A program made the translations under genes and the position numbers. Source: Eledone cirrhosa (Eukaryota). Taken from it: DNA of 64,000 nucleotides. The stretch is taken from positions 362,638,001 to 362,702,000 of the forward strand of contig OZ024740.1 in NCBI GenBank assembly GCA_964016885.1, written 5' to 3'. The notes under the pieces are model-generated. The model saw only the letters and a list, made by a program, of their open reading frames with translations. It was not told where the DNA came from and searched no databases. Shown here in pieces: positions 30,401 to 51,559 of the stretch. Each line of letters begins with the position of its first letter. Position 1 is the stretch's first letter.

Positions 30401-32455
30401 CGCCCACTAACACTAAAGAGCAGGACGTTCCAAGAAAGGTCTCTAGACGTCTGAAGAAATCTGACTGTCCTGCCCCTGTTGGGGCGTAGACGGCTACTAG
30501 CCTGATATCATTGCCTTCGCTGCCTGATAGCATTGCCATCCAGCTGATGGTTACCACATCTACGTTTAGTAACCTGAGGTTGTTGAGCAGGTGACCCTGC
30601 TTCCAAGACGATCCCAGGCCACGTACATTTACACTGCCTATTCTGAGTACGGCCATGCTGGGTGAGGAACGGGCTAAGTGAGAAAGGATCACTTACCTTG
30701 ATCGTGTGGGGAAGGGACAGTAGAACCGTCCCTTCGGCTGGTCATGTGTGTCTCCAAGATCATATCTGTGTAGATTCTTTTGGAGAGTGACCCCTGAAAT
30801 CCCCAACGCAGTTGGGGAATTTTTGTTTTAACTGTTTATAATCTTCGAGTTTAATTTTGACAATGTTAATATTTTTTGGTAATGTTCTTGGTGACGATGG
30901 GGTGTGGTAATTTATGTCTGTAATGGCTGTGTTCTGCTTTATATGTTCCATTAATTTTTGTATGCGATGTTTATGGCTGTGTACTTTTTTTTGCAGGGGG
31001 GTTGCTGTTTTCTTCTTGTTGCTGTTGGGTGTGTGTGCTTTGTTGTGTTTGTGGTGATGCTGGTGTTGGTGTGGTTGTTGTACTTGTGGTGGTGTGGTGA
31101 TGGTGGTGGTGTTGCTGCAAGTTTCCTTGCAGCCTTTACCCCTCTTTCTTTGCCTTCGCTTTTGGAGGGAGAAGCTGTGGTGTTTTTGTGTTTTGATTTT
31201 TTTTGCCAACCATTTTCACTCCTCTGCCACCTCATACCCCATGTCCAACTGTGAGAGGTTGGGGAGGGGTATGAGTTCTACCCTCTCATTTGTCTTTGTT
31301 GTTGGTGGAGGTGGTGGAGCCTGGTCTGCCGTTCTTGGCAGCTAGTGCTAGTGCAACTGTTTCTGTTGCAGTTGCCACCGCTATTTTTGCTGTCCGTGGC
31401 TTTGGTGTGGGTGCCACAGACGTTGTCCTCCTACTCTCTGTAGAAGCTCCCGACTTCCCGATGGAATAGCGCTGATGCAGTCCTGGTTGGTTTGGATGAG
31501 CATCTCCATTCCAATACTGGACCAGTCCTCTCTCTCCAACTTCTGTACCTGCAGAATGGTTGTTCTATCCTTGATGCCAGCAAGAACAGACACGACCAGC
31601 CAAGGCACGGGGACGTAGGGTGGGACCTGGGTTACACTGACCTTTTCAATTTTTTTTCTGCAGTAAAACGGGACTAATGTTATGTCATCACTTCGTAGGG
31701 TCCTCAGTGCATGTGATTTTGCTTCCTGGGTGGTAGCAAAAAGGACGTCCATACTTCTTGATGTGGGTTTTCCGTGGTCACACAGTTCCCAAGGCCTCCG
31801 AGGCTCTCTCCACACGACGTGATTTCATGGCAATTGTGCGGTATGACACTGTGCATAGCTCTTGTTCCCCCAGGAAGTCGGTTATGGTTTCAAGGACACT
31901 GAAAATTCAGTTCTGGTTACCATGTGTCTTGCGACCGCCATCTCCTCCTCTGTGACCAGGACTGTTTCTACGTTGCAAGCCACCTTAGCAAAAGAGATGG
32001 TCCCTTTTTCAGTGGCATCATTGTTGCCACCGCTACTGCTGCTGCTGGTCTTGTTGTTGGTGCTGTTGCTGTTGCTACTGCTAGAAACGGTGTTGTTGGT
32101 GTTATCACTGTTGCAGTTGGTTGTGTTTTTGGTGCTGCCGTTGTTGTTGTTCTAAGTGCAATTTGTATTGTTGCTGTTGGTGTTGTCGCTATTTATTTTC
32201 TTGTTAGTGGTGTTAATATTGTTGTTGCATTTGTTGTCAGTTTTTCGGGGGGAGCTCAGCCATGTTTTTTTTTTTGAGAAATTTTAAAAGTAAAAAGTTC
32301 AAATATTTGAGCCAAAAGGCCCAAATATTATACTTTCCCCTTCACAGGGCAAAGTCCAAGGGCTCTTACACGACAACAAAAATTTACAATAAATGATTTA
32401 TGACAGGTAAATAAAGAGACTTACGGGAGCAAGCGAAAAGACGTCCAATCAGGCC
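27490..32455 (-). mobile_element. Older decayed relative of the Tx1-like LINE, near full length with deletions and frameshifts
   Basis: Fragmented ORFs (27821-28615, 28865-29290, 29312-29620, 29817-30155, 30372-30692, 30760-31815) are colinear and clearly homologous to ORF1/ORF2 of the intact copy. It has its own 5'UTR and a 3' end GGCCAATAAAGAAACCATTATT. Confidence 0.93.
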
Positions 32456-32499
<44 letters not shown>

Positions 32500-32760
32500 T
32501 TTCTTTATTAACCACAAGGGTTTACATAAAGTAGACATTAAGGACAGTGCAGGGCAATGCAGGACGGTACAAATGGGCATTTCTGCGTGTAAAAAAAACA
32601 AAAACAGAGGATGTAACAAAAATACCAATGAAAATAACAATGAAAAATTCCCCAATAGGGGGGAGACTTCGGAGGGACATTTGTGGAGAAAGCCCAGTAA
32701 AAAGCCACAATGACCCTGACCACCAAGGCAAGTGCCCTCTCCCAGTTTTCCACCTTTAGT

Positions 32761-35700
32761 TTACAGATATATACTCAGAGTCGGCCCATTCACTCGGGCC
32801 ATTCTTGCTTCTCTCACCCATCTTTCAACAAAATGCTGGGAAGAGAGCACTTCCTTCTCTACTCTGATTTTCCTTTTCAAATGAAATTTGAAAAAGTCAA
32901 TCAGAGCATCACCGAAGAGGTAAGTGCTCGTCTTCAGCCCTTTCAAACGTGTCCACCATACTATCTCTTTCGCCATGGCCACCAGACAGATAAAAACTGC
33001 CTGCCCTTCCCGGCTAAAGGAGGAGGGCGGGGCAATCCTCACGATAGACTCAGATGATAGCTGGATCCGTCCTAAACGCGACAGCAGGTGTTCGACATAA
33101 ACCCACAAGTCAGCAATTTTCGGACACTGGACGAGTGCGTGCAGGACGGTTTCGTCGCCCTGCGCGCATCTCGGACATGCCCGGCTGACGGCACCTCCAT
33201 GCCTGTAGAGTTTATCCCGAACTGGCAAGGCTCCTCGGTAGCACTGCCAGGCCAGAGATTTCTGGAAGTTGTCCATAGGCCCCGGCCCGAAAGTTCTTCC
33301 GAAGAGATTGGCTAGTTGATTTTCGTCGACGCCTAGAGTTTCCCCAAGTACGTCGTCGCTCTTCCCCTCCACTAATCCTCTATAGAACGCCGAGGTGGAG
33401 TTTCCACCGATCACATTGCCCGATTGGTCGAGGGCTGTGAGCGCCTGAAGACATTCCAGTCTCCAGGCGCTCCCTCTCGGTCTTCGCTTGACCCAGGACT
33501 GCAGCTCCGTCAAGGAAACGAGCTGGGGAAAAACGCGTCTAGCAAACGGCGACCACACCTGATCACCGTCGAGGAAGAGGTGGAGATGTCGTAGCCTGAG
33601 CGCGTGCCTGCGCATCATCAGCCACGGCATGCCCAGCCCTCCACGTAGCGGGTGTTGACAACAGATGGACCGCCTGACCATCGGAGCACGTCCCTTCCAC
33701 AAAAAGCGAAAGAGCAAACGCTCCAGCGCAGTCAGGCGAGGCTTAGGACAAGGTACGACGGTTAGGCGGTAGCAGATGACAGACGCGATGTACGCGTTAG
33801 CCACCTCCGCTCGACCTTTCAGGGATAGCTTCCTCTCCGCCCATTTCTGGGTGAGAGAAGCCACCCTGCTCGTCACCTCGTCCCAGTTTTTGTCCGTCTG
33901 GAGGTCCGGACCGAACCAGACCCCTAGCAATTTAACCGGTCCGTCCGTCCAGCGCCCGACGACGCTGTTGGACGGCATGGACCTGCCTCTCCAGGTGCCG
34001 AGCTGCAGGCCCACTGACTTTTCCTGGTTGATCATTGCTCCTGTCACCGCTTCGTATTCTCTTAGTGTAGTGCCGATCGCCTCGATGTGTTTGGCGTTCG
34101 ACACCACTACGGTGACATCGTCCGCATATGCTGACACGGATCTTCCGCATCCTAGTTCGCGCGGGACCCCCCTCAACGTCTCCAGTTTGTGCAGTAATGG
34201 CTCGAGAGTCAATACGTACAAGAGGGACGAGAGGGGACATCCTTGGCGGACCGAGCGCATGATGTTGAACGGTTCCGACAGGTGACCGTTCACTCTCACC
34301 ACAGAGCAGATGTCGCTGTGCATGGCAGCGATCCAGCCTCTGAAGACGGGCCCAAAGCCAGCCGCCCTCAGGACTGCCGCTAGGTAACGATGGTCGACCC
34401 TATCGAAAGCTTTCGACTGATCTAAATTGATCAAGGACCCACCCGTGCCAGGTTCCCTAGCTACCCTCTCTACGATGTATCGCATGAGGTGGAGGTTGTT
34501 GTGGATGGATCTGTCGGGAATGGCGCATGTCTGCGCCTCTCCCACCAGACCACCAACGACAAGCGCCAACCTCTTTGCTAGCACCTTGGCCAAAATCTTA
34601 AACTCTGTGTTTAGCAGAGTTATGGGCCGGAAATTGTCTATGTTATCCCCCTTGTTCGGATCCTTTCTCAGCAGTGCCACCGCTCCTCGGCTCACAGAAC
34701 TGGGAATTCTCCCGTTCTGTTGCCAGTTGCAGTAGACGTCCGCCAAGAGGCCTCCGAACAAGTCTGGCATCTGTACGTAAAGTTCATAGGGCAGACCATC
34801 CAAACCAGGCGATTTACCCCTTGTGCAGCCAGTCATTGCCTCCCGTACTTCAGCGGCTGTTATCGGCTTTTCGCAACACTTCGCCTCAGTGGCCGAGAGC
34901 CGCGGCAGTCCGTCGAGGTAGACACTAAAGTCCATCCCTCTACCCGGCCCCCCGCTGCCCCCGAACAGCTGAGCGAAGTGTCGCTGAAAAGCTTCACACA
35001 TTTGCCCGGGATCGAGTAGCATGCGCCCGTCGTGGTCCACCAAAGACCGGATCGTGGCTTTGTTGCCACGACGCGCCTCCGCCACTCGGGCCCATTGAAC
35101 GGCTTTCGTCCCCTCGTGTCTGAGAGCACGCACCCTAGCTCTGACAACGCAGCCTTCGTGCTTTGCATTGAAGAATTGGTCAAGGGCCAATTTCGCCGCA
35201 AGCACGTCGGTCGCAATGCCTTTGCTAAGCGCCTTGTCTAATTTTCTAACTAGTTCTCCCTCTGCTCTATTTTTCTCTATTGCTAAAGCCTTACTAAACC
35301 TAATCGATTCTATTCTAATCGCTCTTTTCAGAGCAAACCACCACTTGTTGTTGACGATGGCCCCCGTCAACGCCCGCTTAACTAGTTCGCTAATCCGGTC
35401 TCTGTAGGCCTTGCGCGCTGGTAAGGACGCGTTTAGCTTCCAGTAGCCGGGTCCTCGTCTATGAAGCCTATCTAAGTCAAGCACACAGGTCACGAATTTG
35501 TGGTCCGTGTAGCTGACTATCTTGAATTGTGGACAGCCTATGCTAGACCTATCTATTTCCCTACAAAATACTCTATCTAGATATGATCTGGATGACCCTA
35601 TGCGGTTTGTCCAAGTCCACATTGGCACATTCGGGAAATCCAATCGGTACCTGTCAGACAGTTCAAAACGCCTGAGCAGGTTGGTGAGGCTCTTGCACCC

Positions 35701-36180
35701 TCCACCCCTATCCGCTAATCCCACACAGTCCCAGCGTGCATCTAAGATCCCGTTCCAGTCGCCCACTAACACTAAAGAGCGGGACGTTCCAAGAAAGGTC
35801 TCCAGACGCCGGAAGAAATCAGGCCGCCCTGCTCCTGTCGGGGCATAGACGGCCACTAGCCTGAAAGCTTGCCCGTCTCCGCTGGTCACGTCCAGCACCA
35901 CCAGCTTACCCTCTGGGTCCAGGAAGATGGCCCGTATGGCGAGATCCAAACCTCTCCGAAAAAGCACAGCAACTCCTCCACCCGATCCAGGACGGCTGGG
36001 AGATGCGTACACATCGTAGCCGCCGAAGATCGGTGCGAAGGCCCGTGCTTCGGAGATTCTGGTCTCGCTGATGGCCACTACATCTATGTTTAGTGACCTG
36101 AGGTCGTTGAGCAGGTGACCCTGCTTCCATGACGACCCCAAGCCACGCGCATTTATGCTGCCTATTCTGAGTGAGGTCAT
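32761..36180 (-). CDS. LINE ORF2: APE endonuclease + reverse transcriptase + C-terminal zinc knuckle (1139 aa)
   Basis: APE motifs SINARGL, SETR, VYAP, GDWN, YLDRV, TDH. RT motifs KSPGLDG, NFRPITLLN, LDQSKAFDRV, RQGCPLS, YADD. C-terminal CPRC..ETVLHALVQC. GPGYWKLN and GGLGMP are typical of L1/Tx1. Confidence 0.97.
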   Translation of the reverse strand: MTSLRIGSINARGLGSSWKQGHLLNDLRSLNIDVVAISETRISEARAFAPIFGGYDVYASPSRPGSGGGVAVLFRRGLDLAIRAIFLDPEGKLVVLDVTSGDGQAFRLVAVYAPTGAGRPDFFRRLETFLGTSRSLVLVGDWNGILDARWDCVGLADRGGGCKSLTNLLRRFELSDRYRLDFPNVPMWTWTNRIGSSRSYLDRVFCREIDRSSIGCPQFKIVSYTDHKFVTCVLDLDRLHRRGPGYWKLNASLPARKAYRDRISELVKRALTGAIVNNKWWFALKRAIRIESIRFSKALAIEKNRAEGELVRKLDKALSKGIATDVLAAKLALDQFFNAKHEGCVVRARVRALRHEGTKAVQWARVAEARRGNKATIRSLVDHDGRMLLDPGQMCEAFQRHFAQLFGGSGGPGRGMDFSVYLDGLPRLSATEAKCCEKPITAAEVREAMTGCTRGKSPGLDGLPYELYVQMPDLFGGLLADVYCNWQQNGRIPSSVSRGAVALLRKDPNKGDNIDNFRPITLLNTEFKILAKVLAKRLALVVGGLVGEAQTCAIPDRSIHNNLHLMRYIVERVAREPGTGGSLINLDQSKAFDRVDHRYLAAVLRAAGFGPVFRGWIAAMHSDICSVVRVNGHLSEPFNIMRSVRQGCPLSSLLYVLTLEPLLHKLETLRGVPRELGCGRSVSAYADDVTVVVSNAKHIEAIGTTLREYEAVTGAMINQEKSVGLQLGTWRGRSMPSNSVVGRWTDGPVKLLGVWFGPDLQTDKNWDEVTSRVASLTQKWAERKLSLKGRAEVANAYIASVICYRLTVVPCPKPRLTALERLLFRFLWKGRAPMVRRSICCQHPLRGGLGMPWLMMRRHALRLRHLHLFLDGDQVWSPFARRVFPQLVSLTELQSWVKRRPRGSAWRLECLQALTALDQSGNVIGGNSTSAFYRGLVEGKSDDVLGETLGVDENQLANLFGRTFGPGPMDNFQKSLAWQCYRGALPVRDKLYRHGGAVSRACPRCAQGDETVLHALVQCPKIADLWVYVEHLLSRLGRIQLSSESIVRIAPPSSFSREGQAVFICLVAMAKEIVWWTRLKGLKTSTYLFGDALIDFFKFHLKRKIRVEKEVLSSQHFVERWVREARMARVNGPTLSIYL

Positions 36181-36215
36181 GTTTAAAATAGAGTGGAAAA
36201 GATGGGAAAGACCAC

Positions 36216-38312
36216 TTACCGTACTTTTGGTAGAGGAGGGATGGTTTTTACATCCCTTTTCACTTGATCGTCTGGTGAAGGGACCGTTGAATCGTCCCTT
36301 CGGCTGGTCGTCGGCTCTTCTAAGAGAATGTCTGAATATACTCTTCGATTGATGGTTCCTCCTAGGTCCCTGAAATCACCAACTGCGTTGGGGAATTTCG
36401 TTTTAATGTTTGTGTATTGTTTCTGTGCTATTTTTAGCAGTCTTATGTTAGTTGGCGTTTTGATTGGTGCTGGTATTATGTAGTCTTGTTGTGAAATGTC
36501 TGTGTGTTCAATTATGTAAGTCATTAGTTTCTTGTTGTGTGTGTTTATTGCCGTGCATTTGTTTTTCTGGGGGTGGGGTGTGGTTCTGCTATTTTCTTGT
36601 TGTTGTTGCTGGGTGTGTGTGTTTTGTTGTTGTGTTTGCGATGTTGGTGCTTGTGGTGGTGGTGTTGAAGGTGTTGTTGGCGGTGGGGTTGTCGCCGGTG
36701 GTGATGGTGGTGCTGGTGTGGGTGGTGATGGTGTTGGTGGTGTTGCTGCTGTGGGTCTCTTTGCAGTAGACTTTACTCTTTTCTCATTTCTTTCCTCCCT
36801 TTTCAAAGGCGACGATGCGCTGCTTCTGCGTTTGTGCCTTCTTGCGACCTTTTGCCATCCCTCTCCCACCTCACACTCCATGTCTGATTCTGTAAGGTCG
36901 GGGAGGGGTACCAGCTCCACTCTTTCACTTGTTGTTGTTGGTGATGTTTGCACTGGAGTCTCTGTTGCAGCTGCATTTGGTATTGCTGTTGTTGTTGTTA
37001 ATATTTCCACTGCTGCTGCTGTCTTTGAATTCCGTGGAGTGGGTATGGGTGCCACGGACCTATCGTTCCTGGTTGCCGCTTGTCCTGTTGCTGGTAGCCG
37101 TGGAGCCGGATTCGGAAGGAGGGGGGTTTTCTCCTTTCTCAGGGTCTGCTCGTTGCAGAAGGCCCTGAGGTGAGTCTTCGATCCACAGCGAAAGCATTTC
37201 GGGCGTTTGCCCTCAACACTTATGGGCAGTTGAGTGCCGTTATCGAAGTCTATCACATCCGGGATAGCTTCGATGCACTCCTGGTTGGTTTGGATTAGCA
37301 TCTCAATGGAGGAGCCGACCCAATCTTCTCTTACTTTTTTCTGTACTTGCAGTACAGTTGTTTTGTCCTCGATTCCGACGAGGACAGACGCGGCCAGCCA
37401 AGAAGGGGTCATTCCGGGGGGGACGTGGGTCAGTTTGACCCTCACAATTTTTTGCCCGCAGTAGGAGGGCACCAACACCATTTCCTCGCTCCTTAGGGTC
37501 ACTACTGATTGGGCCTTTGCCTCCTGGGGTGTGGCAAAAAGTACGTCTACGGTGGCGTATTTTTTGCCTCGGGTGATGTGCGTTTTCCGCTGCCACACAG
37601 ACCCCAAGGCTTTTTGTATTTGGGCCTCTGTGGCTCTTTCCACCCTACGGGATTTTGTACTTACTGTACGGTACGTGACCGTACAGTGCTGTTGGGTTTC
37701 GAAAAAATGTTCTGCTGCCTTGCAGATTGCTCGGTGTCCGTTCTTTGTCACCATCTTCTTCGCTTCCTCTAATTCCTCATTTGTTATGAGGATTGTTTCC
37801 AAGTTTTTCGCAATACCTGCAAATGAGATTGGTTTTTCTCTGCTGTTGTTGTTGTCGTCAGAGCTGCTGGTACTTTTGTTGTTGCTGCAGGTACTACGAC
37901 TACTGCCTCCGCCGCTGTTGCTGTGGTTGTTGTTGGTGTTGCTGCTGCTAATGCTGTTGTTGTTTATGCTGCTGGTGATGCTGTTGCGGCTGCTACTGTT
38001 GTTTTCATTGTCACTGTTGCTGTTGTTATTACGGCTGCTACTGCTATTATTCCTGACGTCAGACGAATGAACTGGGTTTTCGTATTTCCCGCACACCTGT
38101 TTCGTCGCTGTCGTCGTCGTCGTGGAGAAACCTTGCACGCTTTGCACGAGACTTTTCTTTTCTTTCGTCACTTGCGAAAGAGAAGGGAGGGAGAGAGACA
38201 CATTTAAAGAAGGGAGGGAGAGAGACAATCTTCTCTCTGCTGTAGTGATGATTGAGGAAGAAGAAGACGGAATGAGTGGGAGTGACGTATGAAATTTCTT
38301 TTTCGTAGCCAT
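36216..38312 (-). CDS. LINE ORF1 (gag-like RNA-binding protein, about 698 aa from MATKKK)
   Basis: Uninterrupted ORF with a CCHC knuckle CFRCGSKTHLRAFC, an RRM-like central region and N/S-, P/T- and Q-rich tracts. ATG context AACAACATGG; the older copy has AAACATGG at the equivalent position. Confidence 0.9.
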   Translation of the reverse strand: MATKKKFHTSLPLIPSSSSSIITTAERRLSLSLPSLNVSLSLPSLSQVTKEKKSLVQSVQGFSTTTTTATKQVCGKYENPVHSSDVRNNSSSSRNNNSNSDNENNSSSRNSITSSINNNSISSSNTNNNHSNSGGGSSRSTCSNNKSTSSSDDNNNSREKPISFAGIAKNLETILITNEELEEAKKMVTKNGHRAICKAAEHFFETQQHCTVTYRTVSTKSRRVERATEAQIQKALGSVWQRKTHITRGKKYATVDVLFATPQEAKAQSVVTLRSEEMVLVPSYCGQKIVRVKLTHVPPGMTPSWLAASVLVGIEDKTTVLQVQKKVREDWVGSSIEMLIQTNQECIEAIPDVIDFDNGTQLPISVEGKRPKCFRCGSKTHLRAFCNEQTLRKEKTPLLPNPAPRLPATGQAATRNDRSVAPIPTPRNSKTAAAVEILTTTTAIPNAAATETPVQTSPTTTSERVELVPLPDLTESDMECEVGEGWQKVARRHKRRSSASSPLKREERNEKRVKSTAKRPTAATPPTPSPPTPAPPSPPATTPPPTTPSTPPPQAPTSQTQQQNTHTQQQQQENSRTTPHPQKNKCTAINTHNKKLMTYIIEHTDISQQDYIIPAPIKTPTNIRLLKIAQKQYTNIKTKFPNAVGDFRDLGGTINRRVYSDILLEEPTTSRRDDSTVPSPDDQVKRDVKTIPPLPKVR

Positions 38313-38552
38313 GTTGTTTTTTTGTTTAAAATGAAATTTTGGGTACAAAACCCCAATAACTGGTTATTTAACCCCGAAGGGCCAAATAACGGACAGAAAG
38401 ACCCCTCTCACGAGGAGGAGGGTGTCTTTATCAACAATTTGGTTCAAGTTTTAAACAATTTACAATTGTTTTAACGGTTAAAAATTACTATACCTTACAG
38501 AGCCGAGCCTCCGTCAACCATGGCATTCAATAATAATAATAATAATAATAAT

Positions 38553-38762
38553 GATGATTTCTGATTTAGGCACAAGGCCATGAGGGGGAAAGTTGATTAA
38601 ATTGACTCTAGTGTATTACTGCTTGCTTTATTTTATTGACCTCATAAGGATGAAAGGGAAAGCTAACTCCGGCAGGATTTGAACTCAGGACATAAAGGGC
38701 CTTAACTATATGTGGCAAAGCATATTGTCTGATGCTCTACTGATACTGCCAATCTGCTGCCC
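38553..38762 (-). mobile_element. SINE family A copy between the RTE tail and the 5' end of the intact LINE
   Basis: Same head, body and tail as 44432-44614, with (AAT)n on both sides. Confidence 0.85.
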
Positions 38763-38781
38763 TAATAATAATAATAATAAT

Positions 38782-39540
38782 CATCATCATCATCACCGTT
38801 TTACGTCCGTTCTTCCATGCTAGCATGGGTTAGACGGGTTGTCCTGTTGTGAGCAGTGTCTGGTCGGCTGACCATGCCTTGCTCATACAGGAACTGATTT
38901 TGGCTTGGTTTCTACAGCTGGATGCCCTTCCTAACACCAACCTCATTTACAGTGAGTGCTGGGTGCTTTTTTCCGTAGCACCTACACGTCCACTTTACAG
39001 TGTGAGCTGGGTGCTTTTTTGCCGTGGCACCTCCACGACCACCTTGCAGTGGGAGGGTGTGGGGGCATATTGTCTATATGCTTCAGCTTGTACCCATGGG
39101 AGGTCAGGTACTCTGTATTACTGCGTGACGCCAGAGGTCACGGTCGTGTGTCATCGCCTTTGAGAGGTGCAACTGGGTAAGGTCGGCCCCTATCACCTCA
39201 TCCCAGGTCTTCTTGGGTCTCCCAACTCCACGGCTTCCATTGACTTCTAGTGCTCTGCACCTTTTTATGCAGCTGTCATCCTTCATACGCATCACATGTC
39301 CATACCAACGCATCCGCCTCTCCTGCACACAGCATTTGATTCCTCTGATGCTCAGTCTCTCTCTCAATTCATTTATGCTTTGCCGTTCGCGTATATTACT
39401 ATTGCTCATCCATCGGAGCATGCAGGCTTCGTTTCTTTCTAATCTACGTAAGTCTTCCACCTTCAGCGCCCAGGTCTCACTACCATCTAACATTGCTGTT
39501 CGGATACACGCATCATACAGTCTGCCTTTCATTTTGAGGG
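38782..39540 (-). mobile_element. RTE-clade LINE 3' fragment, young copy
   Basis: ORF 39104-39532 MKGRLYDACIRTAMLDGSETW...GRPKKTW, very similar to 3960-4710, with a (GAT)n tail. Confidence 0.9.
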
Positions 39541-39799
39541 ATCCAAGATCTAATTATGTAACATATAATATCCATAAAACCATAGAGTCACCAACATGTA
39601 GACATTATATGGAATAAAAAGGGAAACTATTAGCTTCATTGCAAGTGAATACAGTAAACTACGTAGCACAAACAGAAGCATGATACCATTGCTAAGATCA
39701 TTTGCTGGATGTTATGAGAGAAAAATAAGCTGAACAGAACAAGGGAAACTATTTTGTGCCTTAAAAATCCAATATGAATAACTGTTAGTAGGTTTAGAC

Positions 39800-42700
39800 A
39801 GCACAGACGAAAGACAAAGCACCAGTATATGATAGTGCTCATACTTAAATATGGAATGTTACGCGATGGGGCCCCGCCACACAGGCTGGAGCAGGCGTTT
39901 CCCCAGAGGACGGCAAGGGAGATGCGCTGGAAGAGCCATTCATACTCACAAAGCTCACACCTGCGGCTGGCCAGCTCAGCACCTATGGTGGTGAGTAGGG
40001 AGGTAGCCCTAGGACCAAGGACACCAGAAGTCTCCACTGCCAGGGGTACAACCGCAAACCTGTCGGACAGCGACCGGTATTTGAGGAGTTTGAACTCCTC
40101 AGCCCGACGTGCAGCAGAACCCAGGTTAATCGCAGACTGCACCAGGTTGCGGCTGCAGAAAGTGTCGGTGCAAGTGGCATCCCACACGAGGGGTTTGCCA
40201 CCGCAGAACGGGAAGATGGTCATGCCATCTGGCCTTTTCCCCTCGGTCCAGCCCCACCGGCTCGAGTTGAAAGAGGAAGCCTGCAGCGTCCAAGCTATGC
40301 TTTATGACCTCGTTGAGGGCAGCATGGCGTGGAAGGCAGCCGGCACTGTGGCGACAGGAAAGCGGGTGGAGGCTGAAAGTGTCCACGGTGGATCCGCAGC
40401 AACAATGGTGTGGCTGGCAGATCCGGAGGCCGAGCCTCAGGGAAACGCTGATGCGCAGGCTATTGTTGTCTAGCTGCGTGCCAGTGGAGAAGGAGGGCAG
40501 GGCATGGAGCCAGGCACCACTGTGGGGTTTGGAGGCCGTATGAAAGGAGGCAAGGCGGTGCTGGTCGAGCTGGCGCGTGGGCCTGTCAGAGGCCAGGCTG
40601 CACTGGATGGCATCCCAGGTGCTTTGGGGGAACTTGACGTCAACAGGGGCAGAAGTCTACTGGGCTAAGTCCCAGCCAGTCCCACATCTCACAGGTGGCC
40701 TCACGTTCTCTGAACACAGAGGGTTCTATTGTGTTTTGAAGAACCCTGCTGACGAGGATGCGGCATGAGGTTACTGATGAAAGAAATGCCAGCGAGACCG
40801 GGGACCGGAGGCCAAGGGTGCCATACCTGACAGGTAAAGTGGTCTGTTGCCATCCAATGTCGTCAAACCTGACGTTGCATATCTCCTCGGCTGCCACTCA
40901 GATACAAATATCGAGGTCAGCGAGGAGAGATGTGTGGTTGTAGCACGGAGCGCTGCGAAGGGTATAGAGGAGCTTCGGCATGGCGAAGCAGTTCCTCAAC
41001 AGGAAGAGAGCTGGGTGGCCATCGATCAAGCCCAGTTGGCTCGTGAGGGTCTGGAGTTGTTGAAATATGACCTGATGGTGGAACAGATGGCCGGTGGGTG
41101 GATCGGTGACCCGAGGATGAGGACATCCTCTTTGGGGGTCACCTGTACCTGGTGGAGAATGGACCGCACGTCCAAGATGGAGGCTGCAAGGCTCTCAGCA
41201 TCATGGCTGACATTCACCACCTCCAACTTGGCCGAGTTGACCTTGAGGCCGATTCTCGCCAGGGCAGGAACCACCAATTGTAGGTCATGGCAGACAGTCT
41301 GTACGAGCCCGCCCAACGTTGCATCATCCAGATATCAAATGTTGAGAAGAGCCGTGATACTCTGGGTGATGTGGTCTATACCAAGGGCAAATAGGAGGGG
41401 TCCCAAAGGGTCGCTCTGTTGGACCCCAGTAGCCGAAGGAATGACCGTATCAGCAGCAAGGAGCATGCTCGGGGCTCCATACGACAGGTAGGCCAGTGGG
41501 TAGGCAGAGGGGGCTCGGCTGAGGCAGGCATCGAGCAGTTGGTCCTGGTGTAAACAGTTGAAGGCATTCCTCATGTCAAGCTTGACAATGAGGTGCCTGG
41601 AGTCCCTGGATGCTGGTTTCGGTGGGCAGCTGTTGAAGAATTGCCTGATTGCATGTGCTGCCCCCTCACAGCCACCGGACACGCCGACACCCAGTTGCAC
41701 CGGACTGAACTCCTCACCCAGTTCGGGTGTTATGGACCTGCAGAGCACCTTGGCAGCCCACCTCCAGAAGACATTGCCCACAGCGATGGGGCGTATGCCA
41801 GCCTCTTTCTTCCTGAGAGCGGTGAGGCTAGCCGAAAAAAAGAGGCCTCGGGCGTGAGGGTCCAGGGTGCCATGGATGAGCCTATTGGTGAGCACCACAA
41901 TTGCACTCAGAAGGTGGCGCCCGACCTCAGCAGAGAGTGGGGATAGCAACTCCTTGAGGTGGCCTGGTTGGAGACCATCAGCGCCTTCACTGCTGCTAGC
42001 TGGGAAGGACTTGATGGCAGACATGATGTCTGCGTCGGAAGCCACAAGGAGCAAGTTGGGTCAGGTGGGGGTATGGGTTAGAGATCAGCAGGTGGCTCAG
42101 GGTGCTTGAGTTGCAGGGCAGCCAGGACCTCCTCGGTGGGTTGGAGGACAGTGTCCTCTGAGGCAACTACTCTGACTGCGGCCGAGACATCACCCATGAT
42201 TAGTTTAGCATTTACACGGTCATGCAAATGCTTGGCGCTGGCCTCAGGGGTAGAGAATTGGGGTTACCCGAGGGTGGGGTGTGCGGCGTCCCCTGGCGCG
42301 CTTGCCCAAAGGACGAAACATTGGCCTTGACAGAGGCTGCTGTGGACCAGCCGCCCCAGTCAGCGCCAGAACTGGGGAGGCCGAGGGCGAGTGGGCGAAA
42401 TAAAAGAGTTGCTCCCAGTCGCTGGCTTGATTGGAGTCCAGGGTGCTCTCAAGCGAGGAAGCGAGGGCATCGGCAACCGACACCCGGGCCGCTCTCGGGA
42501 TCCTGAGTGGGATCTTCCGGAGCCGCCTGAGCCGAGCAATGTTGACCAGCAACGCCTGGGCGTTAGGCAAGCTCGCTGTCTCATTTAGTGGTGTGCCAGA
42601 TGGCCGTGGCTTGGCAGATGAGGGGAAGAGGCAGTTCTTACATCTCCACGCTGCGAGGGCACTGGAAGCTCGACGTGTCAAGTCAACACAGGTGGAAGCA

Positions 42701-43090
42701 GCCACACCACGAACAGTTCCGGCCCCTCTTCCGTCTGATAGTGGTGCTGCAAGTGCTGCTGGTGTCGGCTTGGAGGGATGGGGGATGGGGCGTGGGGTCG
42801 CGGACTGGGGCATCGAGCGGCATCAGGGGTGAGTGGCTGGCATGTGTGGGTAGAAGGGAAAGTCCTGGTAAGAGGGCCTCATAGCTCACCTACATCAGAT
42901 ATAGAGGCATCAGAAGACAAGAGAGAAAAGAAGGGGGTGTATGGAGGTGGACACACAAGAAGATAGAATGTTAGCAAATGAATGAGTGAATGGATGAATG
43001 TACAACCCCCCCCTCCCAAGGTGGGGGGAAGAGAGAAAACGGGACTGTTCCCAGTGGAAAGACCCAGAGTTCAGCACACAAACATGCGAG
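39800..43090 (-). mobile_element. CRE-clade non-LTR retrotransposon (RT + restriction-like endonuclease), near full length, decayed
   Basis: Fragments GIRPIAVGNVF, QLGVGVSGGCEGAAHAIR, KLDMRNAFN, GVQQSDPLGPLLF, a YLDD region, CCHC (CRHSAGCLPRHAALN) and an RLE (..PDG..GKPLVWDATC, PLAVETSG, LFQRIS..GN). Boundaries approximate. Confidence 0.88.
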
Positions 43091-44077
43091 CATGTTGGCA
43101 GTTTCTCATAGGACCTTGTGGCTGGGGTGAGTCATTCAATCCTGAAAACATGTGTTGTTAATGTCACTGATGCTGGAGTTGGCTTCCTTTTGTTACTGGT
43201 AGTGGTAGTGATTGCTGGTAAGATGTTGATATATAAACATATGTGTTGTTGTTGTTAATGTCACTGTTGTTGTCGTTGCTTTCCTCTTGTTAATGGTGGT
43301 GGAGATGAAACTGCTACCAGTTCGGGCTGCGAGGCAGTATGCTGAGGCTCGAGTGCCTTCTTTTACCGAAGATGCGGGGCCGATGTTATTATCCTGTTGC
43401 CCTCTTGACCGGAGATGCGGGTCAGTGGCTTTCGGCATCATTTGGCAGCACAACGGCAAATAAATATATTTTCTATTTTGTTTTTGTTTTTTTCTTTCTC
43501 TCTGTCTAATCCAATTCAAATTATTTGGCAGTGAACTGGTGGTCGGTTTTGTTTTGTTTTATGTTTCAGGTAGTAGATAGACAAAGCAGAGTTGATCAGT
43601 CAACCAGAAATATAACTACTGAACTAATGATAAATAGATAGAGAATTTTTAATGGCGCTAGCAGAATTAGAAGAGGAAAGAGATTGTACTGATGCATAGA
43701 GAGGGAGGGTTTTTATTTATCTAAATATCTTCCATTGTAATTTTATGTGTAGGAACATTTGTTTTGCTCCAAATTAGAAAGTTAGTTATATTACTAAATC
43801 CCACTAAATTCTTCATTATTTTCAAAATTATTTCAAAAGTATCTTTCATCATAAAAAAATTGTTTAACCCTTTAGCATTTACATTACTCTATATTTACTA
43901 TTGTATTTTCATGGTAAACACTTTATCTCACATAATATTGAATCTGTGAGATTTTGATGTTATTTATTTTGAGAACAATACCATAATGTAAGTATGAGCA
44001 GCCTGTTACAGCCAGTTTGAACAGAAAAAGGTGAGAATTCTGGTCAGATTAATGGAAATTATTTAGAAAGAGCTTAC

Positions 44078-44173
44078 CAGTAGGTACGTTCTTGATTGAT
44101 AAAAGCTGAGATTGGGTGAAAGGGTCATCAGAAACAGTAATTGGTTGTGACAATAAACTGTCACTTGGTTTTC
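44078..44173 (-). CDS. FAM221A: FAM221A coding exon 6
   Basis: ctacAG|GKPSDSLLSQPITVSDDPFTQSQLLSIKNVPT|GTAAGC; compare human VPSVEFLESPITAVDSPF. Phase 1 at both ends. Confidence 0.88.
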
Positions 44174-44431
44174 CTGTAGAAAATATGAAGAAGTTATTGA
44201 GGCAGATTATATATACTCTTAGTATATTTTCATACTAAGTCTATAAACTCAATGTACGCATATATTTACTCAGTCTCAGTTAAACTCTGTACTGTATATG
44301 AACAGATATAAATTTATCATATGCTTCAGTTGCTTAACACACAAATTAATATATTTTAGAATTGTCTTCTAATATAATCACTAGTAATATGCAAATTGTT
44401 ACCACCATTTCAGTGATATTATATTTATAAG

Positions 44432-44614
44432 TGGTGGATTGGCAGTATCGGTAAAGGGTCGGACGCCATGCTTTCCAGCATAGTTACTTCCCTTTACGAT
44501 CTGAGTTCAAATCCCGCCGAGGTTGACTTTGCCTTTCATCCTTACTGGGTCGATAAAATAAAGTACCAGTAATGCACTGGGTAATTTGCTGGCCTTGTGC
44601 CAAAAGTAGAAACA
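44432..44614 (+). mobile_element. tRNA-derived SINE, family A (ATT tail), with 14-bp TSD
   Basis: A-box-like TGGCAGTATCGG and B-box GAGTTCAAATCCC, body GCCTTTCATCCTTAC.GGGTCGATAAAATAAAGTACCAG. TSD ATTATATTTATAAG at 44418-44431 and 44615-44628. Confidence 0.88.
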
Positions 44615-45070
44615 ATTATATTTATAAGGCTTTCAGTTATATACATTGCAATTATTTCATATGGGACCCCAATAAAGGTAAAAAATCAATTAAGAATATG
44701 TATAAATCTTTTTAATTTGCAGGTAAGTAAATGTGATATGTTTACTTAATGTGTATATATATATGTTTACATATTAAACTCTGTATTGTGTATGTCATCA
44801 TCATCATTTAACGTCTATTTTCCACACTAGCATGGGTTAGACGGTTTTGTCCCATTTGAGGCAAGTTGTGTCGGGTGACCATGTCTTGCTCATATAGAAC
44901 TGTTTCTGGCTAGATTTTTACGGTTGGATGCCCTTTCTACTGCCAACCACATTTACAGTGTGTGCTGGCTGCTTTTTGTCATGACACCTATTTTTTTATA
45001 TATATATATGGGACAAACCCATCTAACACATGCTAGCATGGAAGATGGACGTTAAACGATGATGATGATG

Positions 45071-45105
<35 letters not shown>

Positions 45106-45232
45106 CATGGTGTGTTTATACACACACACATATATGTATATAAAAAACCCAATTGATGGATTTGATATGACTGAAGAAGCTTAAGAGATAAAGGAATACT
45201 AATAAAAAACAACAGAAGACACAAGTCCTTAC

Positions 45233-45445
45233 CAATTCCACTGTCATCTAATCTCATATAACCTTCAAGCAGTGAGGAGTAGCCTGTGATTCCACCCATA
45301 GCAGCATATAGAGTTGGTTTACCAATGGGATGACCACGTTTTTCCCTCTCTTTCTGTGTTTCCACTATAGTTTGGTGCATGTTTATTGGGTGGCCACAAC
45401 CACAAGTGGTCGAGTTTTGAAAACCAAAACACTTGTAACAAGAAA
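45233..45445 (-). CDS. FAM221A: FAM221A coding exon 5
   Basis: aactAG|VSCYKCFGFQNSTTCGCGHPINMHQTIVETQKEREKRGHPIGKPTLYAAMGGITGYSSLLEGYMRLDDSGI-G|GTAAGG. YAAMGGxTGxSSLxEGYMRLDDSGIG is characteristic of FAM221A. Confidence 0.96.
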
Positions 45446-45756
45446 CTAGTTTGTAGAAGATGGTTAAATATAAAAATAATTTCAATCAGCTTTAATGTGT
45501 GTGTGTTTGTGTGCATGTGGAGGTAGGTGGACAAGTGTGCAGTGTGTGTATGTGTGTGAACGTGCACATGCACATGTGTTTGTGCGTGTATTTGTACATG
45601 CATGCATGTGAACCTGCATATGTGTATGTGTATGTATGCAAGTATGTGTGAATGTGTGCACAAGCATGCATCTATGCATGTGAATGTGTATTTGTGTACA
45701 AGTATGCATCTGTGCATGTGTGTGTACATATAATGTGTGTATGTGTAATGTCTTAC

Positions 45757-45947
45757 CCTTCGAGCACTTGTATGGCTGGAGCGTTGAGTGATCTTCAACT
45801 AGATGTTTACAATGGCACCTGAGAAAATTACTGCCAGTATTGAAGACATAATGATAGAACTGACATTTACATGTTTTAACTTTGCATGGAAGTAGGATTG
45901 GTCTTCCTGTTGGTATTTTCTCAAAATCAGTTTTGTGCTGCTTATAT
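45757..45947 (-). CDS. FAM221A: FAM221A coding exon 4 (Cys/His-rich)
   Basis: cttccAG|YKQHKTDFEKIPTGRPILLPCKVKTCKCQFYHYVFNTGSNFLRCHCKHLVEDHSTLQPYKCSK|GTAAGA. 191 nt, phases 2 and 1. Confidence 0.95.
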
Positions 45948-46164
45948 CTGGAAGTAAGATTTTTTTAAATGGTGATTTCTTCAGCACCAGGCACAAACAA
46001 TAAAGTGAATTTAAACAGAAAGGGGTCCCTTCAGTCTTGACTGGTCATGGGTTATATAGCTATGACTAGAGGTAGAATAAGGTTGCATGAGGCCTCTGGC
46101 TAAAAATTTCATCAGGGCCTTTGTGTACCATTTATGGTAGCAAATAAATTTAGTTAGATATCTA

Positions 46165-46507
46165 TGGAGGCATATGGCTTAGTGGTTAGAGCATTGGCCC
46201 TGCAATCGAAAGGTTGTGAGTTCAATTCTCAGACCGGGTGATGTGTTGTTTCCTTGAGCAAGACACTTTATTTCACATTGCTCCAGTTTACTCAGCTGTA
46301 GAAATGAGATGATAGGGACTGGGGTCCTTATCATTCCACTGCAAAGTGGTCGTGGAGGTGCCACGGCAAAAAAGCACACAGCACTCACTGTAAATGAGGT
46401 TGGTGTTAGGAAGGGCATCCAGCTGTAGAAATCAAGCCAGAATCAGTTCCCGTCCCACCCTTGCAAGCAGGGAAAAGCGGACGTAAAATGATGATGATGA
46501 TGATGAT
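46165..46507 (+). mobile_element. tRNA-derived CORE-type SINE, family B, with RTE-derived 3' tail
   Basis: TGGCTTAGTGG A box and GAGTTCAATTCTC B box. CORE-like GTGTTGTTTCCTTGAGCAAGACAC...CTCAGCTGTAGAAATG. The 3' part matches the local RTE 3'UTR and ends in (GAT)n. Confidence 0.85.
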
Positions 46508-50928: not shown

Positions 50929-51559
50929 TATCATCATCATCGTCATCATCATCATCATCATCATCACCATCATCATCATCATTTTACGTCCACTTTTCCC
51001 TGCTTGCAAGGGTGGGACGGGAACTGATTCTGGCTTGATTTCTACAGCTGGATGCCCTTCCTAACACCAACCTCATTTACAGTGAGTGCTCGGTGCTTTT
51101 TTTGCCGTGGCACCTCCACGACCACTTTGCAGTGGAATGATATGGACCCCAGTCCCTATCATCTCATTTCTACAGCTGAGTAAACTGGAGCAATGTGAAA
51201 TAAAGTGTCTTGCTCAAGGAAACAACACATCACCCGGTCTGAGAATTGAACTCACAACCTTTCGATTGCAAGCCCAATGCTCTAACCACTAAGCCATGTG
51301 CCTCCATCGAAACAACACATCACCCGGTCTGGGAATTGAACTCACAACCTTTCGATTGCAAGCCCAATGCTCTAACCACTAAGCCATGTGCCTCCATCGA
51401 AACAACACATCACCCGGTTTGGGAATTGAACTCACAACCTTTCGATTGCAAGCCCAATGCTCTAGCAACTAAGCCATGTGCCTCCATCGAAACAACACAT
51501 CACCCGGTCTGGGAATTGAACTCACAACCTTTCGATTGCAAGCCCAATGCTCTAACCAC
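50929..51559 (-). mobile_element. SINE family B copy with a tandemly quadruplicated 90-bp tRNA head
   Basis: Units start at 51219, 51309, 51399 and 51489 (period 90 bp, the outermost truncated). (CAT)n tail at 50929-50980. Confidence 0.9.

Follow-up and report, generated by a model that had tools for sequence, protein, structure and literature searches.

A conserved U1-type splice donor at the ORF1 stop of a young Eledone cirrhosa LINE: a candidate docking site for U1

What is the role of a perfect splice donor at the stop codon of a retrotransposon gene? The question is raised by a 64,000-nucleotide (nt) stretch of the Eledone cirrhosa genome (contig OZ024740.1, positions 362,638,001 to 362,702,000; hereafter the window), whose minus strand carries a young long interspersed nuclear element (LINE) with two open reading frames (ORFs). 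The stop codon of ORF1 lies inside a consensus site for the U1 small nuclear ribonucleoprotein (snRNP). The first-pass annotation of the window proposed that this donor starts a 53-nt intron whose removal fuses ORF1 to ORF2. Comparison of related copies points elsewhere: the conserved donor may instead be a place where U1 docks while the transposing RNA is left unspliced, a reading that we put forward tentatively, as somewhat short of an even chance.

The splice donor at the junction of ORF1 and ORF2

The window copy belongs to subfamily A of the element. Its junction is composed as follows (slashes mark splice boundaries).

36214..36222, minus strand: U1-consensus 5' splice-site motif ACG/GTAAGT including the ORF1 stop; best U1 match of the 313 GT sites in the element
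36181..36213, minus strand: pyrimidine-rich inter-ORF spacer; can pair back on the donor, significantly only in the C/D group
36167..36169, minus strand: proposed CAG acceptor, ORF2 codons Leu4/Arg5; not conserved as an in-frame acceptor

The local geometry described at first pass is accurate. ORF1 ends GTA CG/G TAA with GTAAGT at 36219-36214, which places its stop inside the donor; the spacer is 89% pyrimidine between +9 and 4 nt before the ORF2 ATG; the first downstream AG is the CAG at 36169-36167, 53 nt away, and both ends are in phase 2. An in-frame ORF1-ORF2 join is thus feasible on paper in the window copy (53 nt, GT...AG, matching phase). The pyrimidine tract adjoins the donor; in the 15 nt that precede the AG, pyrimidines number 8. 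Some in-frame AG can hardly fail to occur at this place, since the ORF2 codons R-[I/V]-G provide an AG in each of phases 1 and 2. The GTAAGT hexamer alone is unremarkable, with two occurrences per strand in the 6-kilobase (kb) element.

Eight subfamilies (A, B, C, D, E1, E2, F and G) were gathered by searching with divergent ORF1 homologs; F is represented by two decayed copies and D by one copy. In all eight, a U1-consensus site coincides with the ORF1 stop or lies immediately before it, so the donor is indeed conserved across subfamilies. Among nine representative junctions, donor positions -1 to +4 and +6 are invariant (9/9), and the 12 positions from -15 to -4 agree in only 3-6 of the nine. 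Relative to subfamily A, the ORF1 cores of E/F are 33-35% identical and those of B, C and G 50-66%, and four-fold sites of ORF2 are 49-57% identical when A or C is compared with the E/F group. The chance of nine matches is 0.498^9 to 0.568^9, that is 0.002-0.006, an approximate value since the constraint on the stop codon itself is left out of it. On this comparison, the conservation of the donor across distant subfamilies is more than chance.

The motif is also well kept within subfamilies. GTAA is intact in 73/82 loci of A, 40/40 of B, 70/79 of C/D, 58/58 of E, 2/2 of F and 8/9 of G; these tallies are of loci and not of distinct copies, a few loci covering the same copy, 8 of the 278 loci lack the ORF1 end, and 8 of the 9 donor-changed A loci had been selected for that change. 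Subfamily G has a different yet donor-like sequence, CAG/GTAATT, in 7/9 loci. In each of the seven elements scored, no GT site out of about 300-345 matches U1 better than the donor. The database ORF1s P0026 (ending DQGK) and P0035 (ending EGKS), about 30% identical, fit a phase-1 donor.

The reading frame of the motif varies. Its phase is 2 in A, B and G, 1 in C, D, E1 and E2, and 0 in F (two copies), and it is translated as R-stop, G-K-stop and V-S, respectively. One protein constraint cannot explain the motif, because it is read in different frames. The variation in phase (A/B/G, C/D/E1/E2 and, on two copies, F) contradicts the phase conservation expected of a fusing intron, and no acceptor, near or far, is shared by the subfamilies. 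Counting from the donor, the first YAG (Y, pyrimidine) at least 45 nt away keeps the frame in A (53), B (52), E1 (53) and E2 (58), four of the eight subfamilies, which come from two related pairs; it is out of frame or unusable in C, D, most of G, and F, and F has no usable in-frame AG at all. An in-frame AG is also present in C (59) and G (about 69), while in six of the eight G loci inspected a TAG that is out of frame immediately precedes the ATG. In every subfamily the supposed intron retains the ORF2 ATG and a hydrophobic codon.

The window contains an older relative, a copy from subfamily C, which had been used as support for the fusion.

30691..30699, minus strand: donor AAG/GTAAGT of the older subfamily-C copy, phase 1; ORF1 stop TGA at 30691-30689, ORF2 ATG at 30656

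The donor and a CTCAG at 54 nt are present in this copy, as annotated. The copy was thought to fit the frame only if an apparent 43-nt gap upstream of the donor resulted from decay after insertion. This origin was rejected, the difference being fixed among the siblings of the copy (all 30 subfamily loci, L031-L060). The ORF1 of subfamily C ends D-Q-G-K-stop with the donor in phase 1, and the 54-nt splice reads E-stop in 29/30 loci (K/V-stop in mutated copies). The extra 43 nt of subfamily A (36220-36262; L166, L141, L165) have the appearance of a staggered join, as if subfamily A had acquired a B-type tail behind an ORF1 end of C/D type. ORF1 modules have also been swapped between A and B, whose ORF2 proteins are 97% identical in amino acids and whose spacers are near-identical while their ORF1 cores are only 52% identical.

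Genomic copies of the junction

An intron removed from the transposing RNA is expected to leave copies lacking exactly these 53 nt. The family is young (40/40 scored genome matches are 100% identical over 401 nt), and 1,228 genomic places match the subfamily A pattern of two exon flanks separated by a gap of 40-70 nt. None matches the same flanks with a gap of 0-30 nt, which against the 1,228 spacer-bearing places sets a 95% upper bound of about 0.25%. This argues against routine fusion because a fused RNA would encode reverse transcriptase (RT), unless the protein avoids its own RNA. The short-gap pattern of subfamily C likewise has 0 genome matches (its long-gap control matches 36/278 loci). 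No intron-less copy is found among the 278 loci; the genome-wide search for spacer-less copies covered A and C.

A further set of patterns looked for exon ends continued by anything but GT; an exon joined to a different acceptor whose sequence starts with GT would escape the patterns used. After the 24-nt exon end, six copies continue with A, C or T and two with G plus a non-T base; all eight are point mutants with an intact spacer. Two loci, L146 (C) and L256 (G), join the end of ORF1 near the donor to ORF2 about 250-260 nt downstream. They were rejected as clean splice products since their 3' ends are not AG and their deletion end is shared with other loci. L082 was discarded from the deletions as an alignment artefact.

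35973..35988, minus strand: G-run in ORF2; endpoint of four deletions in older copies

The deletions of L146, L256, L262 and L268 span 250-600 nt and end at this one G-run. They account for 4/23 listed deletions and are not GT-AG; two of them begin within about 12 nt of the donor. The shared endpoint could reflect stalling at a G-rich structure.

Sequence runs and protein collections were also consulted. Four of six runs were compared over 32520-46100, all consisting of contigs of unrecorded kind; X1 must be DNA because it reads through a host intron (45151-46100). Contigs from X4 (34474-36843) and X5 (35321-36335) cross the junction without a gap and a contig of X6 (36154-37565) runs through the donor; none of these contigs is evidence on splicing. 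The same holds for the absence of any joint inside the element among the 15 joints listed (1,923 further). A search for longer, fused proteins scored none of its 572 candidates, a weak result, and a metagenome scan with P0175 found no relative and no junction DNA from another species.

Candidate roles of the donor

The element retains an ordinary two-ORF layout: ORF2 has its own ATG, the searched copies keep the spacer, and the donor is kept in several frames. L1 ORF2 is produced from bicistronic RNA by reinitiation. U1 docking is favoured over fusion because no searched copy lacks the 53-nt stretch. In the mechanism that we tentatively prefer, and judging from conservation alone, the U1 snRNP would bind the donor on nascent RNA, and bound U1 would keep premature cleavage and polyadenylation at bay and so help the transcript to reach its full length. 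The adjoining pyrimidine tract, which pairs back on the donor in C/D, might tune the access of U1. The RNA would remain mostly unspliced, and reinitiation on this bicistronic RNA would supply ORF2. The first-pass annotation had also suggested that the donor is used in another way, either for U1 binding or to make an ORF1-only RNA. This suggestion gains real support: across very divergent subfamilies and frames it is the donor that is kept at the nucleotide level, and not the acceptor or the phase.

Elements that exploit U1 in this manner are known. Ty1/Copia elements (EVD, copia) rely on U1 to make a gag-only RNA and to suppress early 3' ends, according to the available text of PMC5580714. As described there, they resemble the present element in that a 5' splice site is conserved towards the end of the structural gene and that the full-length RNA retains the intron, and they differ by their long terminal repeats (LTRs), one long ORF, conserved acceptors and a stop made by splicing. 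The element described here is non-LTR, its ORF1 has its own stop and it has no conserved acceptor; it is a member of neither Ty1/Copia nor the foamy viruses. At the foamy-virus major splice donor, bound U1 suppresses polyadenylation and RNA structure gates the access of U1 (PMC3694450, available part). That donor, as presented there, lies near the 5' end in a retroviral LTR context, whereas the Eledone donor is internal, between ORFs, and its function is putative. The persistence of a U1 site at the ORF1 stop through deep divergence suggests that the U1 particle of the spliceosome serves a non-LTR lineage as well, in the way that it serves Ty1/Copia elements and foamy viruses.

Polyadenylation signals give a mixed picture. 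An AATAAA/ATTAAA-type signal is found at about +1150 from the donor in C, E1, E2 and F (4/7 elements). Several observations weigh against a docking role. Subfamily A has no AATAAA/ATTAAA between the donor and the terminal signal, hence no obvious downstream site to suppress; poly(A)-like hexamers do lie 280-330 nt upstream of the donor in 6/7 elements, but may be due to chance in the A-rich ORF1. Two more distant database ORF1s, P0072 and P0086, have no donor-type C-terminus, and that of P0025 (...TLGKKWKQN) is ambiguous as a trace of a phase-1 donor. The junction travels with the better-conserved ORF2 module, so its conservation is partly plain descent. Finally, phase 0 rests on the two decayed F copies, and D on one copy.

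Two further sites bear on the alternatives.

32583..32585, minus strand: strong acceptor-like site in the 3' untranslated region (UTR); in A, B and G only
35904..35912, minus strand: second U1-like site about 310 nt downstream of the donor; 7/9 in A, 9/9 in B, C and D, 8/9 in F, absent in E1 and E2

It is conceivable, if rather doubtful, that the lineage sets its ORF1:ORF2 output by splicing from the fixed donor, either to an ORF1-only RNA or, in some subfamilies, to a gag-APE-RT fusion through an ultra-short intron, only unspliced RNA being copied; if true, this would be a copia-like expression switch in a non-LTR element. An ORF1-only mRNA, made by splicing from the donor to a more remote acceptor or by its coupling to early polyadenylation and setting a high ORF1:ORF2 ratio, seems unlikely when taken by itself. 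Such an RNA needs no conserved phase and, without RT, would rarely be copied back, consistent with the absence of spliced copies; the design is described for LTR elements (PMC5580714, available text). The 3'-UTR site is a strong acceptor for it in A, B and G, and in C the first AG past the ATG gives E-stop and removes the ORF2 ATG. However, the acceptor is not shared: the 3'-UTR site is missing in C, D, E1, E2 and F and was rejected as a universal splice partner for this reason. Moreover, ORF1 has its own stop and, unlike in copia, requires no splice to end, and the eight copies with a non-GT base after the exon include no retrocopy of such an RNA. The fusion itself, with a 52-59-nt intron removed in a fraction of the transcripts, is very unlikely. 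An in-frame first YAG exists in A, B, E1 and E2 and a further in-frame AG in C and G, and the fused N-terminus in A and B would still have a hydrophobic residue ahead of R-I-G-S-x-N. In humans, ultra-short introns (37-65 nt) occur but are rare (PMC4463651); the literature search listed no figure for the minimum intron length of octopus. Against the fusion stand the lack of any spacer-less copy versus 1,228 although the fused RNA would encode RT, the out-of-frame or unusable first acceptors of C, D, most G loci inspected and F, the ATG and hydrophobic codon preserved within the supposed intron in all subfamilies, and a tract before the AG with only 8/15 pyrimidines. Nothing favours fusion, even in A, B and E where the frame permits it, and the 53-nt fusing intron of the first-pass annotation is left without support.

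Two other explanations dispense with splicing and with U1. An RNA hairpin around the ORF1 stop that aids reinitiation at ORF2, the U1 match being coincidental, is quite improbable. The donor can fold back on the spacer in every subfamily, and in C/D a 9-base-pair stem is kept through G-U changes and equalled by only 1-3 of 300 spacer shuffles; folding is weakly above shuffles in F (10/300) and E2 (15/300) but not in A (74/300), B (30/300), E1 (81/300) or G (96/300). The 5' arm is held at the U1 consensus although its 3' counterpart varies in both sequence and location, a pattern that points to a partner outside the stem. A motif without function, carried by descent while ORF1 modules recombine nearby and the stop codon fixes part of it, has a similarly low probability, at the bottom of the range. 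It agrees with the near-identical spacers of A and B, their 97% identical ORF2 proteins and 52% identical ORF1 cores, and with the resemblance of A to a C/D-type ORF1 end plus a B-type tail; the second U1-like site, perfect in B, C and D and lost in E, indicates that such motifs come and go. The rough chance of 0.002-0.006 for nine matches speaks against it, as do the stop offset that differs between frames and the altered motif of G that is still a donor. In addition, selection would be expected to remove a strong donor without use from an element that needs unspliced RNA. As a separate observation, the second U1-like site falls in endonuclease codons E-G-K.

Should the donor be a U1 docking site, it would touch on the LINE balance of much ORF1 protein, little ORF2 protein and full-length RNA, for which mammalian L1 is the main source of understanding. 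Host splicing could also be trapped by so many new insertions with a strong donor on the sense strand. The young family, with more than 1,200 near-identical copies, is open to direct test.

Layout of the element and its surroundings

The element and its main parts in the window are listed below.

32456..38528, minus strand: full-length young LINE, subfamily A; about 6.07 kb, flanked by (ATT)n runs
36216..38312, minus strand: ORF1, 698 amino acids; CCHC-like knuckle, low-complexity arms, C-terminus ...PPLPKVR-stop
32761..36180, minus strand: ORF2, 1139 amino acids, own ATG at 36180; endonuclease, RT and zf-RVT domains
32504..32509, minus strand: terminal AATAAA, preceding the (ATT)n tail

ORF2 has Pfam matches above cut-offs to PF03372 (22-210), PF00078 (511-754) and PF13966 (974-1026), giving the order N-terminal APE-type endonuclease, RT and C-terminal zinc knuckle. 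ORF1 is a separate upstream gag-like ORF; its CCHC-like motif was read from the sequence, no Pfam family was found above cut-off (one sub-threshold match only), and its homologs carry source names from Octopus and Argonauta. The 3' end has a simple-repeat tail, (AAT)14 at 32456-32497, and there are no LTRs. With an APE-RT-zinc knuckle ORF2, a separate ORF1 and a simple-repeat tail without LTRs, the element is presumably an L1/Tx1-clade LINE, the Tx1 label being provisional. It shares with that clade the domain order, a separate ORF1 and an ORF2 with its own ATG, the simple-repeat tail and copies made from unspliced RNA; it departs from it by the U1-consensus donor fixed at the ORF1 stop, of which no description was found.

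The literature searched, with most subscription papers and Repbase outside its scope, yielded no LINE with a conserved donor at the ORF1 stop or with ORF1 and ORF2 fused by splicing. For Octopus vulgaris, a repeat annotation reports 13 recently active L1-Tx1 families and, in its available text, makes no mention of splicing (PMC13282606). The closest LINE precedent is provided by the human L1 SpIREs, spliced L1 RNAs that retrotranspose and amount to about 2% of full-length copies (PMC5860796, available text). As in the Eledone element, donors are conserved in a LINE; most human transcripts evade splicing according to that text, as those of the Eledone element presumably do. The human donors are in the 5' UTR with about 2% spliced retrocopies, compared to 0 among 1,228 here.

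In subfamily A the ORF2 frame extends without a stop for 65 codons 5' of the ATG (36181-36375) and overlaps the end of ORF1; in B the extension is 13 codons. The 3' UTRs of A-G (window 32500-32680) have in common a short palindromic block and a fixed motif just 5' of AATAAA, the remaining sequence being different; the shared block and motif are possible ORF2-recognition signals. Copies often occur in head-to-tail arrays with a spacing of about 6.05-6.08 kb (about 5.84 kb in family E), for instance at G000:C4:253604171-253616733, as if the element targeted ATT repeats including its own tail, the window copy being flanked by (ATT)n runs.

Two likely host exons are found at about 45233-45453 and 45758-45946 of the window, on the minus strand like the LINE; we take them to resemble FAM221A. 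A tandem array with a 90-nt unit (3.8 copies, 97% matches) occupies 51219-51559, and a similar unit is present near 46170-46260.

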